Source: Escherichia phage HP3
Length of the DNA: 64,000 bases
Sequence record: NC_041919.1
Direction: 5' to 3' (one strand)
Shown: positions 6,532 to 60,012 of the stretch, piece after piece
Layout: the number at the start of each line of letters is the position of its first letter
Position numbering within the stretch: the stretch's first letter is position 1
Made by a program: the position numbers and the translations under genes
The notes under the pieces: model-generated
What the model was told of the DNA's origin: nothing
Seen by the model: the letters and a program-made list of their open reading frames with translations, nothing else
The model's database searches: none

Positions 6532-6573
6532 GTTTACAAGTTGACAAGATTATGATATAGTAATCTTGTCAAC
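6532..6573 (+). promoter_or_regulatory. early promoter embedded in 13-bp perfect inverted repeat
   Basis: GTTTAC 6532-6537, TATAGT 6556-6561; arms GTTGACAAGATTA 6540-6552 / TAATCTTGTCAAC 6561-6573. Confidence 0.6.
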
Positions 6574-6696
6574 TGCCAAGGAGAAGAGAATGAAAGTTTT
6601 GTTTGTTGTGTATGTGATGATTCAATATAATTATCCAATGTTTACTTATAATCTGGTGAACAACATTATTGATATTATTCAAAGGAGTATGTAATT

Positions 6697-7260: not shown

Positions 7261-7782
7261 ATGTTTATTTCAAGTGGAAGTGGTTTAATTCGTGTTGAAT
7301 TTAAAAATGACATCTTCCTTATTCAAGGAGATGATATTATTAAAATGAGTTATGATGAAATTAAGAAAATTTGTAATGCTCTTGAAAGTCATGGAAAAGT
7401 GAACGCTGTTATTGATATTGGTGATTTATGGGTGACACTTTATGAAGTATCCGAAGGATTTAATATTGAAGATGAAAACAACATCTTAGCTATTGATAAA
7501 AGAAGCGATTTGTTTGATGTGTTAAAAGTTTATGAACAGTCAAACGGTGGAAGAAAAGCTGTATTGATTTATCAAAAACCACATTCATGTGGAACTGCTT
7601 CAATCATTTCAGATATTGAAGATGAAACTGATACTTATATGTGTGTTTTAAAAGCTGGTGGTGACCGTCATCCGGATTTTATTTCTATTCGTCAAAACAA
7701 TGAAGAAATTTCATTATCAAAATCAGAAGCTGAAGCTATGATTAAGTATTTAACAACTGTTACACCTTCAATGAAAGGATAA
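7261..7782 (+). CDS. hypothetical protein, paralog A2 (173 aa)
   Basis: C-terminal EAEAMIKYLTTVTPSM vs A1 EAIALKTYLDSVIPTM. Confidence 0.6.
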   Translation: MFISSGSGLIRVEFKNDIFLIQGDDIIKMSYDEIKKICNALESHGKVNAVIDIGDLWVTLYEVSEGFNIEDENNILAIDKRSDLFDVLKVYEQSNGGRKAVLIYQKPHSCGTASIISDIEDETDTYMCVLKAGGDRHPDFISIRQNNEEISLSKSEAEAMIKYLTTVTPSMKG

Positions 7783-13721: not shown

Positions 13722-13750
13722 TTTACTTTGCCACAAGGATGTGGTATAAT
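13721..13750 (+). promoter_or_regulatory. T4-type early promoter (duplicate of 59958-59987)
   Basis: GTTTAC 13721-13726, TATAAT 13745-13750; 30-nt block nearly identical to the 59958 copy. Confidence 0.65.
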
Positions 13751-13778
13751 GTTCTTACTTTCTACTGAGGAGATTAAT

Positions 13779-42096: not shown

Positions 42097-42133
42097 TTTA
42101 CAAGCTGACAAGACTATGGTATAGTAGTCTTGT
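42096..42133 (+). promoter_or_regulatory. early promoter embedded in inverted repeat (copy of 6532-6573)
   Basis: GTTTAC 42096-42101, TATAGT 42120-42125; arms ACAAGACTA / TAGTCTTGT. Confidence 0.6.
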
Positions 42134-42154
42134 TGGTTAAATGAGGAGATTGTT

Positions 42155-54775: not shown

Positions 54776-54805
54776 GTTTACTTCCTCGGTTAGTTGTGGT
54801 ATTAT
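54776..54805 (+). promoter_or_regulatory. T4-type early promoter
   Basis: GTTTAC 54776-54781, TATTAT 54800-54805. Confidence 0.55.
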
Positions 54806-54832: not shown

Positions 54833-55333
54833 ATGAAAATTTATCGTGTTGAATCATCGTTTAGTATTCTTGATTATGAAGATGCTATAACAATACGTCG
54901 AAATCTTTGTGTTCAAATAACGCCGTACAGGAGTATAATAGATTCATGGAGCGAAGAGTGGCTATTACACGTAGGTTATGACAGACCTAATTTTATGCAT
55001 CATAGCGATAATAATAAAAGAATTCCTTTACCACACGAAGATAAACTATTAGTTAAAAACGCTAATATAGTAATTAATACTAAGTTCAAGAAAGATTATG
55101 TTGGAGTAGAATATCATATTCCAGGATGGTTTATAGGTCTTTATCATTTTGCTTTCGCTAGTGAATATGATATGATGAGATGGTTCACACGAGAAGAGCG
55201 TGAAGAATTAGCTTCGAAAGGATTTTATCTTGCTGTATACGAAGTACCAGATGACCAAGTTATCATTGGCGGGCATCAAGTAATGTTCCGTAAATCCCAT
55301 GCTGAACTTGTAGATTTTATTGAAATGAGATAA
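54833..55333 (+). CDS. hypothetical protein (166 aa)
   Basis: ATG 54833 after GAGGA SD; track ORF trimmed. Confidence 0.55.
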   Translation: MKIYRVESSFSILDYEDAITIRRNLCVQITPYRSIIDSWSEEWLLHVGYDRPNFMHHSDNNKRIPLPHEDKLLVKNANIVINTKFKKDYVGVEYHIPGWFIGLYHFAFASEYDMMRWFTREEREELASKGFYLAVYEVPDDQVIIGGHQVMFRKSHAELVDFIEMR

Positions 55334-55335
55334 TT

Positions 55336-55881
55336 ATGAAATTTAATTATAATCCTGAATACACACCGAATCCGGCAGCTAAACTGATTGATTTTGACGT
55401 TGTAAGTACTTATGTATGCCCTGTTAAACCACTGGAAATTAAGGAACCTACTATGACTACCGCTATTGAAATCGGCAAAACCTACAAACTGGTTGAACCT
55501 AAAATTAAAACTAATGCCTTGATTTCTGGTCATAAAACTCTGACTGATGTTTTTGGCGAAGGCGAATTTATTGTTGAAGAATTTGCCAAAAGTGAGTGGT
55601 TTGACAAATCTTACGTCATCCACGGTCGCCGGTTAGATAATAACAAAATAAAGAAAAACCTGGTTTATGAAGATGAGTTCATCCTGTTCCAAGAAGTTGA
55701 AGAACAAGACCCTACAGACCTGTTGTGTGCTGCTGTGTCTATCCGTCGTCCTTTTGATAATCCTATCTGTGGTTGGGTAACAGACCAGTGGATTGAAGAT
55801 GGTGTTGAGCTTCTGAACGTTGTCCATGCAGGAGATTTTAGTGTAGTACCTCGTAGTGCGGTGGTAGCTATTTTGAATTAA
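55336..55881 (+). CDS. hypothetical protein, paralog C1 (181 aa)
   Basis: VTDQWIEDGVELLNVVH aligns with next ORF. Confidence 0.6.
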   Translation: MKFNYNPEYTPNPAAKLIDFDVVSTYVCPVKPLEIKEPTMTTAIEIGKTYKLVEPKIKTNALISGHKTLTDVFGEGEFIVEEFAKSEWFDKSYVIHGRRLDNNKIKKNLVYEDEFILFQEVEEQDPTDLLCAAVSIRRPFDNPICGWVTDQWIEDGVELLNVVHAGDFSVVPRSAVVAILN

Positions 55882-55883
55882 TA

Positions 55884-55918
55884 GTTTACAAACTCTTGGG
55901 ACCAGAGTATAATGGTCC
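55884..55918 (+). promoter_or_regulatory. early promoter with -10 inside inverted repeat
   Basis: GTTTAC 55884-55889, TATAAT 55908-55913; GGACCA 55899-55904 / TGGTCC 55913-55918. Confidence 0.55.
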
Positions 55919-55957
55919 TGTGGAGTATAAAATCTTTTTAACAAGTGAGAGATAACT

Positions 55958-56449
55958 ATGATTATTAATATTGGTGAAATTGCTCGTGTATCTGATAAAT
56001 CCCGTTCTAAAGCAGCAGGAAAATTGGTCGAAATTGTAAGCATTCAGCTTAAACACGGCGTTAAAGATGAAGATTCTGAAGTAAAAGTGCGTATCATTCC
56101 TAAAGATGGAAAGTCTAAACCTCAGTTTGGTTATGTTCGCGCGAAATTTCTTGAATCTGCGTTTTTGAAAGCTGTTCCCGCTAAAGGAATTGAAACGATT
56201 GATACTTCGCATGTAGGTGTAGACTTTAAGTGGAAACTCGGTCAAGCTATTAAGTTCATTGCTCCTTATGAGTTTGAATTTATCGAAGGTGGACAACCAC
56301 TTCCTCGGCGTACTCGCGCTATGTGCGCATACATTACTGATCAATGGGTAGAAGATGGCGTTAAGTTATACAACGCGGTATTTTTAGGAACATACAAAGT
56401 CATTCCTGAAAGTTGGATTAAACACTACAGCAAAGCTCGCTATGCATAA
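55958..56449 (+). CDS. hypothetical protein, paralog C2 (163 aa)
   Basis: ITDQWVEDGVKLYNAVF. Confidence 0.6.
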   Translation: MIINIGEIARVSDKSRSKAAGKLVEIVSIQLKHGVKDEDSEVKVRIIPKDGKSKPQFGYVRAKFLESAFLKAVPAKGIETIDTSHVGVDFKWKLGQAIKFIAPYEFEFIEGGQPLPRRTRAMCAYITDQWVEDGVKLYNAVFLGTYKVIPESWIKHYSKARYA

Positions 56450-56471
56450 AGTTTAAAATTTTTTCATAAAA

Positions 56472-56510
56472 CTATATACATCAGTAGTTGATTATGGTAC
56501 TATATCAATA
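56472..56510 (+). promoter_or_regulatory. promoter-stem-loop element (11-bp inverted repeat around a -10)
   Basis: CAGTAGTTGAT 56472-56482 / ATCAACTACTG 56500-56510 flanking TACTAT 56488-56493; -35 degenerate. Confidence 0.45.
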
Positions 56511-56620
56511 TCAACTACTGATACAGAAAACAACTTGGAGAATAAAATGGATAATTCGTTAAAGGTGCGCTGATACTCTTCTGAAACGCATCGCTCCAAT
56601 GTTCAATTAATGAGGAAATT

Positions 56621-56839
56621 ATGATGAAACGTAAAATTATTCAGAATTGCACTAATGATGAATTTGAAGATGTGTTATTCGATCCAGATTTGGTAGTAGT
56701 TCAAAAGGAACACACTGCTAAGTTTACTCACTTGACTTCGGTTTATGTGTATGAAAAGGTTGGGGATAAACAACCAATTTACGGTGTATTTCGTGAAATC
56801 ACTGAAGATGGTACAACTTACTGGAAGGAAATTTATTAA
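56621..56839 (+). CDS. hypothetical protein (72 aa)
   Basis: Track ORF after TGAGGAAATT. Confidence 0.5.
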
Positions 56840-57254: not shown

Positions 57255-57431
57255 ATGCCGCTTTATGATTATAAATGTCAATCAAAAGACTGCGCAAAAG
57301 AATACGAAAAAATCAAGAAAATTTCTGAAAGAGATACTGATGTATGTCCTGATTGTCATCGGATTGCTGTTCGGTTAGTTTCCGCTCCTAGACATGTGAA
57401 TGGTGGTTTTTACGACTTGCTTAAAGGGTGA
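57255..57431 (+). CDS. FmdB-like zinc-ribbon protein (58 aa)
   Basis: YDYKCQSKDC...CPDC pattern; read from sequence, below track cut-off. Confidence 0.45.
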   Translation: MPLYDYKCQSKDCAKEYEKIKKISERDTDVCPDCHRIAVRLVSAPRHVNGGFYDLLKG

Positions 57432-57433
57432 TT

Positions 57434-57805
57434 ATGTTTAAAATCGGTAAGAAATATCGCATTCGCGAAGGTGAAGAAAAGAAATATCTATTTTCTGCTA
57501 TTTATAGGAATGGTTCTATTAGTAATGTAATATCTACAAGCGAATTTATCGTTGAAGATATGAAAGGTAATAACGTTACAATGATTAGTACAGCATCTGG
57601 AAATGACGGAAAAATTCTTCACAGTTTTCAGAGTAATGTTCTAATATATGATGAAGAATTTAATCTATTCGAAGAAGTTCCCGAAGATTTTGATTTTGAA
57701 TGCACTATCACTATGAAATCTGGTGACCCTCTTTCTTTTACAGTTAAAGATGAAAGAAGCCGCTTGAGAGTTATTAGTCTTCTTCAAGCCATTAAATTTA
57801 AGTGA
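57434..57805 (+). CDS. hypothetical protein (123 aa)
   Basis: ATG 57434 within track ORF 57428-57805. Confidence 0.5.
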   Translation: MFKIGKKYRIREGEEKKYLFSAIYRNGSISNVISTSEFIVEDMKGNNVTMISTASGNDGKILHSFQSNVLIYDEEFNLFEEVPEDFDFECTITMKSGDPLSFTVKDERSRLRVISLLQAIKFK

Positions 57806-59958: not shown

Positions 59959-59987
59959 TTTACTTTACCACAAGGATGTGGTATAAT
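59958..59987 (+). promoter_or_regulatory. T4-type early promoter (duplicate of 13721-13750)
   Basis: GTTTAC 59958-59963 overlapping gene 39 stop, TATAAT 59982-59987. Confidence 0.6.
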
Positions 59988-60012
59988 TAATTGGGCAAAT
60001 GAGGATATTGAA

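Follow-up and report, generated by a model that had tools for sequence, protein, structure and literature searches.

The adjacent genes motB.1 and motB of Escherichia phage HP3 (NC_041919.1) are very likely partial paralogs: one C-terminal domain (CTD) is common to both products, the N-terminal barrels differ and a promoter-early stem-loop (PeSL) cassette stands between the two genes. The analysis was carried out on a window of 64,000 nucleotides, the whole stretch of DNA considered; coordinates refer to this window and all features described below lie on its + strand. The window comes from a Tequatrovirus and is 100% identical to Escherichia phage HP3.1 across the compared stretch. This match, the annotated relatives (HP3.1, ESCO58 and T4) and synteny with T4 identify the locus as motB.2-motB.1-PeSL-motB in the early non-essential dexA–gene 39 interval of a T4-like coliphage. 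The context gene motB.2 (54833–55333; annotated in HP3.1, ESCO58 and T4) is at least 90% identical to its T4 counterpart at the DNA level, ends with a stop codon 2 nt ahead of the motB.1 start and is preceded by a promoter-like site with a hairpin (54777–54805).

Both the paralogy of motB.1 and motB and the promoter-hairpin type of cassette are real, and both are already in print for T4-type phages (PMC7827196, PMC1524935, PMC2839356, PMC4122927), so that as a discovery the finding counts for little. The T4 genes motB.1 and motB (PF17613; PMC6070864, PMC7827196) are the same genes in the same position as those in the window, and MotB has been detected as an early protein in published work. Patterson-West et al. 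2021 described a common CTD and differing N-terminal domains for MotB and MotB.1 and proposed a duplication (PMC7827196). New here are the covariation of the cassette stem in related phages, the single promoterless KOW+CTD gene that outgroup phages have next to motB.2, and the truncation of motB.1 in the T4 reference sequence.

A C-terminal domain common to MotB.1 and MotB

Both open reading frames were found as the earlier note had given them. The first (55336–55881) encodes the HP3-type variant of MotB.1, a protein of 181 aa which is present in the open reading frame list, is annotated as 'MotB domain-containing protein', matches phrog_2333 (E=2.8e-89) and has 233 homologues. The second (55958–56449) encodes MotB (163 aa), which is ∼90% identical to T4 MotB and matches Pfam family PF17613 over its full length (329.6 bits, E=3.9e-99).

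The note had also proposed that the two proteins share a conserved C-terminal block, and BLASTP, Pfam, PHROG and hhalign all place this similarity far beyond chance. Pairwise BLASTP aligned MotB.1 aa 142–174 with MotB aa 120–152 (16/33 identical, E=5e-11). The PF17613 (motB) profile recognized MotB.1 aa 140–176 with 34.6 bits (cut-off 25; E=2.1e-8), the match spanning only positions 117–153 of the 162 in the profile, and PHROG 1671 (MotB) matched MotB.1 aa 122–179 with an E-value of 1.2e-16. When alignments of MotB sequences only and MotB.1 sequences only were compared by hhalign, 37 columns were matched with 98.3% probability (E=1.8e-14). An earlier profile comparison (alignments A3 and A4; 100% probability over the full length) was discarded as circular, the same KOW+CTD intermediates being present in both sets, and was redone with clean sets. 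The core blocks that align significantly are MotB.1 aa 142–178 (55759–55869) and MotB aa 120–156 (56315–56425). The motif ITDQW[VI]EDGV.L.N.V, as originally worded, holds for both proteins except for its initial isoleucine, found only in MotB (ITDQWVEDGVKLYNAV; MotB.1 has VTDQWIEDGVELLNVV); the core consensus of the two reads ...GW[VI]TDQW[IV]EDGV.L.N.V..G.[FY].V[VI]P.S.

Structure prediction extends the likeness to the whole domain. In the AlphaFold2 (AF2) models the CTD of MotB.1 (aa ∼125–181; 55708–55878) has five β-strands (133–138, 141–154, 157–164, 167–172 and 176–180; pLDDT ∼90), and the same five are predicted in the CTD of MotB (aa ∼88–157; 56219–56428; strands 97–108, 117–132, 135–142, 145–150 and 154–157), where the β1–β2 hairpin is longer. 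The CTD that HHpred assigned to the OB-fold (PMC7827196) appears in the AF2 models as a five-stranded domain with weak resemblance to Tudor, KOW and SH3 folds. Searches of the PDB by sequence gave nothing meaningful for MotB or MotB.1 (E≥0.36). Fold searches with both models retrieved tandem Tudor, KOW and SH3-like proteins with E-values above 1e-3 (best ∼2e-3) and TM-scores of at most 0.41, matches that are weak owing to the flexible link between the two domains and that were taken merely to indicate the class of fold.

Different N-terminal domains

The N-terminal domain of MotB (aa 1–67; 55958–56158) is a KOW/SH3-like barrel, with AF2 strands at residues 8–11, 23–30, 41–46, 56–61 and 65–67; the KOW assignment is that of Patterson-West et al. 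2021 (PMC7827196). The KOW signature V-S-x-x-S-R-S-K-A-A-G-K is present in MotB and absent from MotB.1. The latter begins with a disordered extension (aa 1–41; pLDDT ∼42), which contains a D-x-D-[VI]-x-x-x-Y...KPL motif (aa 18–34; 55387–55437) found elsewhere in the family between barrel and CTD or between KOW and CTD. The extension is followed by a small β-barrel of the GoF/Frd.2 type, LSm/SH3-like (aa ∼44–122; 55465–55701), modelled with strands at 49–52, 77–85, 92–99, 105–111 and 118–120 (pLDDT 80–91) and with a helix (aa 60–73) between strands 1 and 2.

Kim et al. 2025 reported an LSm-like fold for the N-terminal domain of T4 MotB.1 (PMC12152347). The AF2 model of the HP3 domain likewise shows the bent, five-stranded antiparallel sheet expected of that GoF/MotB.1/Frd.2 family, with weak links to GoF at the sequence level. 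MotB.1 aa 44–125 weakly match phrog_622 (E=2.9e-4), which is the best-matching family of the GoF protein in the window, and T4 MotB.1 matches the same family with E=1.3e-3. In the other direction, the product of a GoF-like ORF at 57428–57805 (125 aa) matches phrog_622 (1e-28) and also phrog_2333, the MotB.1 family (1.9e-4). By sequence, then, the link between the MotB.1 N-terminal domain and GoF is weak but reciprocal. The GoF gene and this second, GoF-like ORF lie 1–1.5 kb downstream in the window.

The MotB.1 of the window has 181 aa and that of the T4 reference 119 aa; the window form differs from the T4 one in the sequence of its N-terminal barrel and carries an extension of 41 aa. The N-terminal domains of the two are highly diverged, although both fall within phrog_2333, and the helix at aa 60–73 is an addition of the window model. 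At the DNA level, identity between the window and T4 is 25–55% over 55345–55700 and at least 90% in the flanks; the MotB.1 N-terminal coding region is a DNA cassette swapped relative to T4. The exchange breakpoints fall within motB.1 and where motB.2 ends, away from the PeSL.

Extent and history of the duplication

The claim that the gene pair arose by tandem duplication stands in part: the adjacent genes are paralogous through their C-terminal module, but duplication of a whole gene is not demonstrable. From the sequence comparisons, demonstrable homology between MotB and MotB.1 is confined to the C-terminal domain of ∼55–60 aa. The duplication is old: at the nucleotide level the common block is 52% identical, and 14 of 37 third codon positions agree.

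A whole-gene tandem duplication from a two-barrel ancestor, in which the N-terminal halves have diverged past sequence recognition, would account for several features of the models. Each consists of two small β-barrels with a flexible linker between them, the N-terminal one being SH3-like in both proteins, and both models weakly match the same tandem-Tudor and KOW structures. Foldseek aligns the MotB.1 model with a 163-aa MotB over 173 columns (E=4.7e-7), and in a greedy hhalign alignment the two proteins run collinear over their full length, beginning at residue 1. However, hhalign restricted to the N-terminal domains gave a probability of 2.9%, the sequence links of the MotB.1 N-terminal domain go to the GoF family and not to KOW, and its coding region is a discrete swapped cassette. 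Among family members, moreover, the CTD is found with KOW, with one GoF-type barrel or with two GoF-type barrels. We therefore consider duplication of the whole gene rather unlikely. Comparison of the N-terminal with the C-terminal domain, within MotB and within MotB.1, gave no significant match indicative of an internal repeat.

That the genes are unrelated and resemble each other by a chance or convergent match of a short motif can practically be dismissed: only ∼37 residues align with high confidence without bridging sequences, but E-values of 2.1e-8 to 5e-17 across four independent tests already refute this reading, secondary structure agrees over the whole CTD in the AF2 models, and intermediates (P0132, P0135 and P0136 in alignment A2) bridge the rest of the domain.

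For the partial paralogy that we favour, single-copy outgroups suggest a history. In Edwardsiella and Enterobacter relatives, one KOW+CTD gene follows a motB.2-like gene at a distance of 9 nt and lacks a promoter in front of it, and the core of its CTD is closer to MotB.1 (∼83%) than to MotB (∼54%; hand-counted from aligned cores). The ancestor was probably such a single gene, with KOW and a short CTD, located right after motB.2 and subsequently duplicated. The copy adjacent to motB.2 would have retained the conservative CTD and received a GoF-type barrel in place of its N-terminal domain, while the other copy, which lies behind its own promoter cassette, would have kept KOW and diverged in the CTD with a longer hairpin; exchange of GoF-type N-terminal cassettes between phages is probably ongoing. 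The direction given to these steps is an inference from few outgroup loci. The proposal that the second copy has 'acquired' its promoter is plausible: two-copy relatives carry the promoter and single-copy outgroups do not. The exchange of cassettes at the level of domains, with KOW or GoF-type barrels on one conserved CTD, makes a compact example of the diversification of phage early genes.

The PeSL cassette between motB.1 and motB

Promoter-early stem-loop cassettes were described in T4-type phages by Arbiol et al. 2010 (PMC2839356) and Comeau et al. 2014 (PMC4122927). [quoted passage not shown] Like other PeSLs it has the upstream stop codon, the AT-rich lead, the promoter consensus TTTACW-N17-TAYWAT of T4/PST PeSLs, the stem-loop and the Shine-Dalgarno sequence with ATG. 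The promoter is of the early sigma-70 type and was correctly located by the earlier note (55884–55913). It consists of a GTTTACA −35 region (GTTTAC at 55884–55889, or TTTACA at 55885–55890), a 17-nt spacer and a TATAAT −10 box (55908–55913), and agrees with the consensus at 11 of 12 positions.

The cassette differs from that of T4 by 1 nt, a promoter is annotated at the same place in wV7, and the promoter is kept in all two-copy relatives. Three of these relatives (L020, L023 and L024) have TGTACA-N17-TATAAT between motB.1 and motB; their spacer contains a small hairpin. No experimental mapping of the motB promoter was found in the papers searched. The activity of promoter and hairpin at motB is predicted from the consensus, from conservation and by analogy with tested PeSLs of RB49 and phi1, the only elements for which promoter and terminator activity was tested (with lacZ fusions).

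A promoter within an inverted repeat is not peculiar to motB; this one belongs to the known PeSL type, which occurs in several copies. Other hairpin-embedded early promoters are found in the window at 6533, 42097 and 54777, and weaker ones at 13722, 27536, 31312 and 59959. Four early promoter sites in the window have a hairpin of −11.5 kcal/mol or lower; the corresponding figure for random windows is 0.6%. PeSLs are described as repeated elements of hyperplastic regions with gene exchange, and this one too lies in a hyperplastic region, adjoining the swapped motB.1 cassette. Its stem-loop overlaps the −10 box, which is among the two most frequent positions in PeSLs, and the stems include G-T pairs. 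It departs from that description in the location of the exchange breakpoints, none of which coincides with the PeSL.

A conserved hairpin around the −10 box

The −10 box is enclosed by a stem-loop (55897–55920) with arms at 55897–55904 and 55913–55920 and an 8-nt loop, in agreement with the earlier observation of a promoter embedded in an inverted repeat (GGACCA at 55899–55904, TGGTCC at 55913–55918). Judged from the window alone the 6-bp repeat has no significance, since 851 nt contain 20 short pairs of this kind, this one included. The hairpin is credible because comparison with relatives reveals a conserved, covarying helix of eight pairs. In 12 distinct variants, which represent ∼3–4 independent lineages, all 96 of 96 cells pair and five of the eight pairs show compensatory changes; control registers obtained by sliding pair at 31–46%. 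RNAalifold predicted the same helix, and the cassette RNA folds with −23.7 kcal/mol (z=−3.6). The stem sequence is wholly different between the Tequatrovirus type and the L014–L021 group, which we take to be Mosigvirus, and the register is kept. A search of 55200–56700 with the Rfam covariance models gave no match at E-values up to 1.

The inverted repeat might instead act in DNA, as a protein-binding palindrome or a cruciform that tunes the promoter, or might merely have been inherited by chance, no RNA hairpin being formed. The repeat does overlap the −10 box, where structure or binding could affect RNA polymerase, and 6-bp arms are unremarkable when the window is considered by itself. Complete pairing and compensatory changes speak against this, as does the retention of the register through replacement of the stem sequence between phage groups. 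In addition, all 14 non-Watson-Crick cells are G·U when read on the + strand, A·C being absent, as expected of a sense RNA and not of the symmetry of a duplex; ∼9 independent changes all fall on the wobble side, with a chance of ∼0.002 by hand count. Action in DNA, or mere inheritance, is therefore very improbable, and the stem covariation points to an RNA hairpin in the sense strand. Such support for a PeSL stem in sense RNA bears on the insulation of early transcription units.

The hairpin shares with rho-independent terminators a GC-rich stem directly after a stop codon, but differs in having no U-run after the stem. As a canonical intrinsic terminator it was rejected: the stem is followed by GUGGAGUAUAAAA and the terminator scan was negative here. 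Directly 3′ of the hairpin, at approximately the expected transcription start, lies a GGAG (55922–55925), which is kept in most relatives (GGAT in two) and presumably resembles a RegB-type cleavage motif.

The −10 box of this predicted strong early promoter thus occupies part of both the loop and the 3′ arm. The conserved hairpin would form in sense RNA that reads through from upstream and would most likely attenuate, terminate or 3′-stabilise the motB.2-motB.1 transcript, with RNA polymerase starting anew just downstream of it for motB.

Possible roles of the gene pair

T4 MotB binds DNA non-specifically and perturbs H-NS; co-purification with H-NS/StpA and toxicity on expression are known only for this protein (PMC6070864, PMC7827196). 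The common CTD is probably a nucleic-acid or partner-binding module, the N-terminal barrel setting specificity. Conservation and architecture allow a wider reading, in which the hairpin is a bifunctional switch and not just a passive attenuator, and MotB and MotB.1 cooperate through their CTDs; taken jointly, the two parts appear quite unlikely. In the first, the same 24 nt may be both motB promoter DNA and the 3′-end structure of the motB.2-motB.1 sense RNA, and GGAG may be a processing site, with the ratio of the paralogs set post-transcriptionally. In the second, a heteromer, for example, may carry two arms to H-NS-coated DNA, KOW for binding DNA and the LSm-like barrel for binding RNA.

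Truncation of motB.1 in the T4 reference sequence

In the T4 reference (AF158101/NC_000866) motB.1 encodes 119 aa, one extra G cutting the gene short midway through the conserved C-terminal motif. In 13 other T4-type records the extra G is absent and MotB.1 has 143 aa. Neither published MotB.1 paper mentions the extra G; Kim et al. 2025 used the 119-aa T4 form, and their paper does not take up its relation to the MotB-type CTD (PMC12152347). Since the published plasmid work used reference-derived sequence, the MotB.1 studied there very probably lacked three of the five strands of the CTD.

The motB.1–motB locus

Over the 2.6 kb around motB.1 and motB, identity is 100% to Escherichia phage HP3.1 and 98–99% to many other Tequatrovirus genomes. 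According to the annotation of these relatives and of T4, the gene order is dda, dexA.2, dexA.1, dexA, motB.2, motB.1, motB, cef, goF, 39.2 and gene 39. The ORF at 55336-55881 is motB.1 (181 aa) and that at 55958-56449 is motB (163 aa), which matches Pfam motB (PF17613) over its full length (E=3.9e-99); both lie on the + strand. MotB is a non-specific DNA-binding protein that co-purifies with H-NS and StpA and alters H-NS footprints (PMC7827196). For T4 MotB.1, an LSm-like fold of the N-terminal domain has been described, and no phenotype was found upon deletion of motB.1 (Kim et al. 2025, PMC12152347). MotB has been detected as an early protein.

T4 MotB and MotB.1 are known to have a conserved C-terminal domain (CTD) in common and different N-terminal domains, and it has been suggested that one of the genes might derive from the other by duplication (Patterson-West et al. 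2021, PMC7827196); earlier, Nolan et al. (2006, PMC1524935) had listed an ORF of RB69 as a paralogous duplicate of the motB next to it. Since both this paralogy and the type of promoter cassette between the genes are already published, the interest of the pair is low; stem covariation, outgroup gene order and a discrepancy in the T4 reference are small additions.

MotB and MotB.1 are paralogous through a single domain

The earlier note had attributed a C-terminal block common to the two ORFs to tandem duplication. The shared domain is correctly observed and statistically solid: MotB.1 aa 142-174 and MotB aa 120-152 have 16 identities in 33 positions (BLASTP, E=5e-11), and MotB.1 is matched by the Pfam motB model at aa 140-176 (34.6 bits; cut-off 25) and by the PHROG MotB profile at aa 122-179 (E=1.2e-16). 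When clean alignments of 101 MotB-type and 187 non-KOW MotB.1-type proteins were rebuilt without common bridging sequences (KOW being the barrel type of the MotB N-terminus), hhalign aligned the two families over 37 columns (98.3% probability, E=1.8e-14), with E=5.4e-17 for the CTDs alone.

Structure prediction is in agreement with this result. The AlphaFold2 models, made from 48- and 54-sequence alignments, place in MotB.1 (pLDDT 77.5) a disordered segment (aa 1-41), a beta-alpha-beta-beta-beta-beta N-terminal domain (aa 49-120) and a five-strand CTD (aa 133-180). In the MotB model (pLDDT 81.2) a disordered linker (aa 70-83) separates the N-terminal barrel (aa 8-67) from the CTD (aa 97-157); each has five strands, and the first hairpin of the CTD is longer than in MotB.1. 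Given the matching five-strand CTDs, the whole domain is therefore equivalent beyond the 37-residue core, as confirmed by three sequences bridging both types (P0132, P0135 and P0136). A Foldseek search of viral models with the MotB.1 model retrieved a 163-aa MotB (E=4.7e-7, 173 columns); fold comparison of both models with the PDB gave only weak matches, to tandem Tudor and KOW proteins.

The duplication reading was right in part. Paralogy holds through the CTD; the genes are probably not whole-gene copies. Profile comparison of the N-terminal domains alone was not significant (2.9% probability). Instead, MotB.1 aa 44-125 matches the GoF family (phrog_622, E=2.9e-4), as does T4 MotB.1 (E=1.3e-3), and a GoF-like ORF at 57428-57805 matches the MotB.1 PHROG (E=1.9e-4), weak reciprocal links that suggest relatedness of the MotB.1 N-terminal half to GoF. 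This ORF of 125 aa, which has 39.2 on one side and gene 39 on the other, matches phrog_622 (E=1e-28) and, weakly, Pfam FRD2. It is a second GoF-type paralog and has no counterpart of that size at the matching position of the T4 reference. Counting goF and the N-terminal domain of MotB.1 as well, three GoF-type barrels lie within 2.5 kb.

MotB.1-type proteins have been sorted into categories by their distinct N-terminal domains (Patterson-West et al. 2021, PMC7827196). In our family search (1.84 billion representatives, yielding 17 clusters, plus a profile search) the conserved module DPTDLLC..PF..CGWVTDQWIEDGVELLNVVH.G.F.VVPRS is preceded by one of four types of N-terminus. T4-type and HP3-type MotB.1 have one GoF-type barrel, proteins of about 250 aa have two, and in a 246-aa form a barrel is combined with a different N-terminal domain; in proteins of 125-165 aa from phages of Klebsiella, Enterobacter and Edwardsiella, the N-terminus is a MotB-like KOW domain. 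A short motif, D-x-D-[VI]-x-x-M/x-Y...P, changes place among these proteins, occurring in the N-terminal extension of the window MotB.1, at the barrel–CTD junction of P0127 and at the KOW–CTD junction of KOW-type proteins. DNA identity to T4 is at least 90% through dexA and motB.2, 25-55% over 55345-55700 (motB.1 N-terminal extension and domain), 70-87% over the motB.1 CTD and about 98% from 55880 on. On this profile, the N-terminal domain of motB.1 is a swapped cassette. A second, smaller low-identity patch (56240-56360; 44-48 of 60 identical) lies inside motB and corresponds to the extended beta1-beta2 hairpin of its CTD (EFEFIEGGQPLPRRTRAM in the window, EFNFIKDDGRVVYTRAM in T4), a variable surface loop.

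Gene order in relatives

Among 44 loci taken from collections of viruses and metagenomes, motB.1 lies directly upstream of motB in all Tequatrovirus-like and related phages. Edwardsiella/Enterobacter-type relatives carry a single KOW+CTD gene, which begins 9 nt downstream of a motB.2-like gene and has no promoter ahead of it; in Klebsiella loci, a short 57-aa ORF precedes the single gene instead. By hand count of aligned cores, the single-copy CTD is nearer to MotB.1 than to MotB (about 83% versus about 54% identity). The duplication is old, because the window motB.1 and motB cores are 52% identical in nucleotides and agree at 14 of 37 third codon positions. Five loci (L020, L024, L040, L043 and L046) have three MotB-family genes in series: motB.1 (164 aa), motB (about 160 aa) and a second KOW+CTD motB (139 aa); in all of these except L043 the motB.2-like gene follows the motB genes rather than preceding them.

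A covarying stem-loop encloses the -10 box of the motB promoter

As the earlier note had claimed, motB has an early promoter of its own (55884-55913) embedded in an inverted repeat. The promoter consists of GTTTACA, a 17-nt spacer and TATAAT; the repeat is GGACCA/TGGTCC, its arms 8 nt apart. Taken alone, this repeat is no evidence, since 20 short inverted pairs, itself included, occur within 851 nt. Intergenic sequences of relatives retain the promoter and a helix around the -10 box, although the helix sequence differs: GGGACCA/TGGTCC[CT] in Tequatrovirus; GGGGCCA/TGGTCCC, GGGGTCA/TGACCCC and GGGGTCG/TGGCCCC in a second group; and GAGAGCCAT/ATGGCTCTC in a third. In alignment A5, which compares 12 distinct variants, the helix of eight pairs (55897-55904 with 55913-55920) is paired in 96 of 96 cells, with both-sided changes at five of the eight pairs, compared to 31-46% of cells when the same partners are slid by 1-3 columns; RNAalifold independently predicts the same helix. 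The 14 cells that depart from Watson-Crick pairing are without exception G·U on the + strand, never A·C, which is the signature expected of an RNA helix in the sense strand. As it is situated upstream of the expected transcription start (about 55920-55922), the helix can form only in read-through RNA from motB.2/motB.1. For the intergenic RNA the fold energy is -23.7 kcal/mol (z=-3.6), and no Rfam family was matched; a classical terminator is ruled out, as no U-tract lies 3' of the stem. In the minimum-energy fold a second hairpin (55931-55952; AUCUUUU...GAGAGAU) pairs the motB Shine-Dalgarno region; its conservation is not obvious in L014-L021, relatives with the GAGAGCCAT-type stem.

Promoter-early stem-loops (PeSLs) occupy intergenic regions. 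An AT-rich lead that includes the stop codon of the upstream gene is followed by an early promoter of sigma-70-like type (TTTACW-N17-TAYWAT in T4/PST), with a stem-loop within or overlapping it, and, at the end, by a Shine-Dalgarno sequence and start codon; these cassettes are enriched in hyperplastic regions, their stem-loop acting as a terminator or attenuator and their repeats as recombination sites (Arbiol et al. 2010, PMC2839356; Comeau et al. 2014, PMC4122927). The 55879-55957 region agrees with PeSLs in every sequence-level feature, and its promoter-in-hairpin is a standard cassette of this type.

Of 21 early-promoter-like sites on the + strand of the window, four (6533, 42097, 54777 ahead of motB.2, and 55885) have fold energies of ≤-11.5 kcal/mol, a value reached by 0.6% of random 37-nt windows (0 of 3000 at -17.4). 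At 6533-6580 and 42097-42144, TTTACA-17-TATAGT sites lie inside near-identical 15-bp perfect hairpins (AGTTGACAAGATTAT.../AGCTGACAAGACTAT...; -19.8 and -18.6 kcal/mol), which look like repeated PeSL copies and could serve as recombination sites. Almost identical cassettes at 13722-13751 and 59959-59988, TAGTTTACTTT[G/A]CCACAAGGATGTGGTATAAT, with the hairpin within the spacer, are a second PeSL subclass with copies 46 kb apart.

The T4 reference motB.1

The T4 reference (AF158101.6, NC_000866.4) has GGATTGGAAGATGG versus GGATTGAAGATGG in the window. This one extra G in motB.1 (record positions 7291-7650 of the T4 locus L003; equivalent to window 55786-55790) changes WIEDGV to WIGRWR-stop, and the annotated MotB.1 is 119 aa. 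The G is confined to these two records and absent from 13 other T4-type records; those without it, with a 143-aa MotB.1, include T4T, T4 'wild', GT7, 147, RB55, RB59 and MT984581, the last annotated with a 143-aa protein ending ...WIEDGVELLNVVHAGEYSVVPRSAVVAILN. A 143-aa MotB.1-type protein was found on 256 contigs. Judging from these records, the T4 reference motB.1 is truncated. Constructs in the published MotB.1 papers were derived from NC_000866.4 coordinates, with the protein given as 13.8 kDa; the experiments on MotB.1 were done with this reference-derived form, and neither paper mentions the extra G or the truncation.

The motB–cef spacer

Between motB and cef, a large imperfect inverted repeat (56480-56522; 20-nt arms, 85% complementary, 3-nt loop) with neither promoter match nor U-tract may be a hairpin for the processing or termination of RNA. 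The spacer also contains, at 56546-56610, an 8-codon ORF (MDNSLKVR) and, farther along, the last 13 codons (ADTLLKRIAPMFN-stop) of a small gene, pieces which match both ends of an 89-aa ORF that a metagenomic relative (L043 2693-2962) retains in full. About 200 nt of this gene have been deleted in the window; judged by spacer length (also ~170 nt) and the lack of a gene, T4 apparently has the same deletion.
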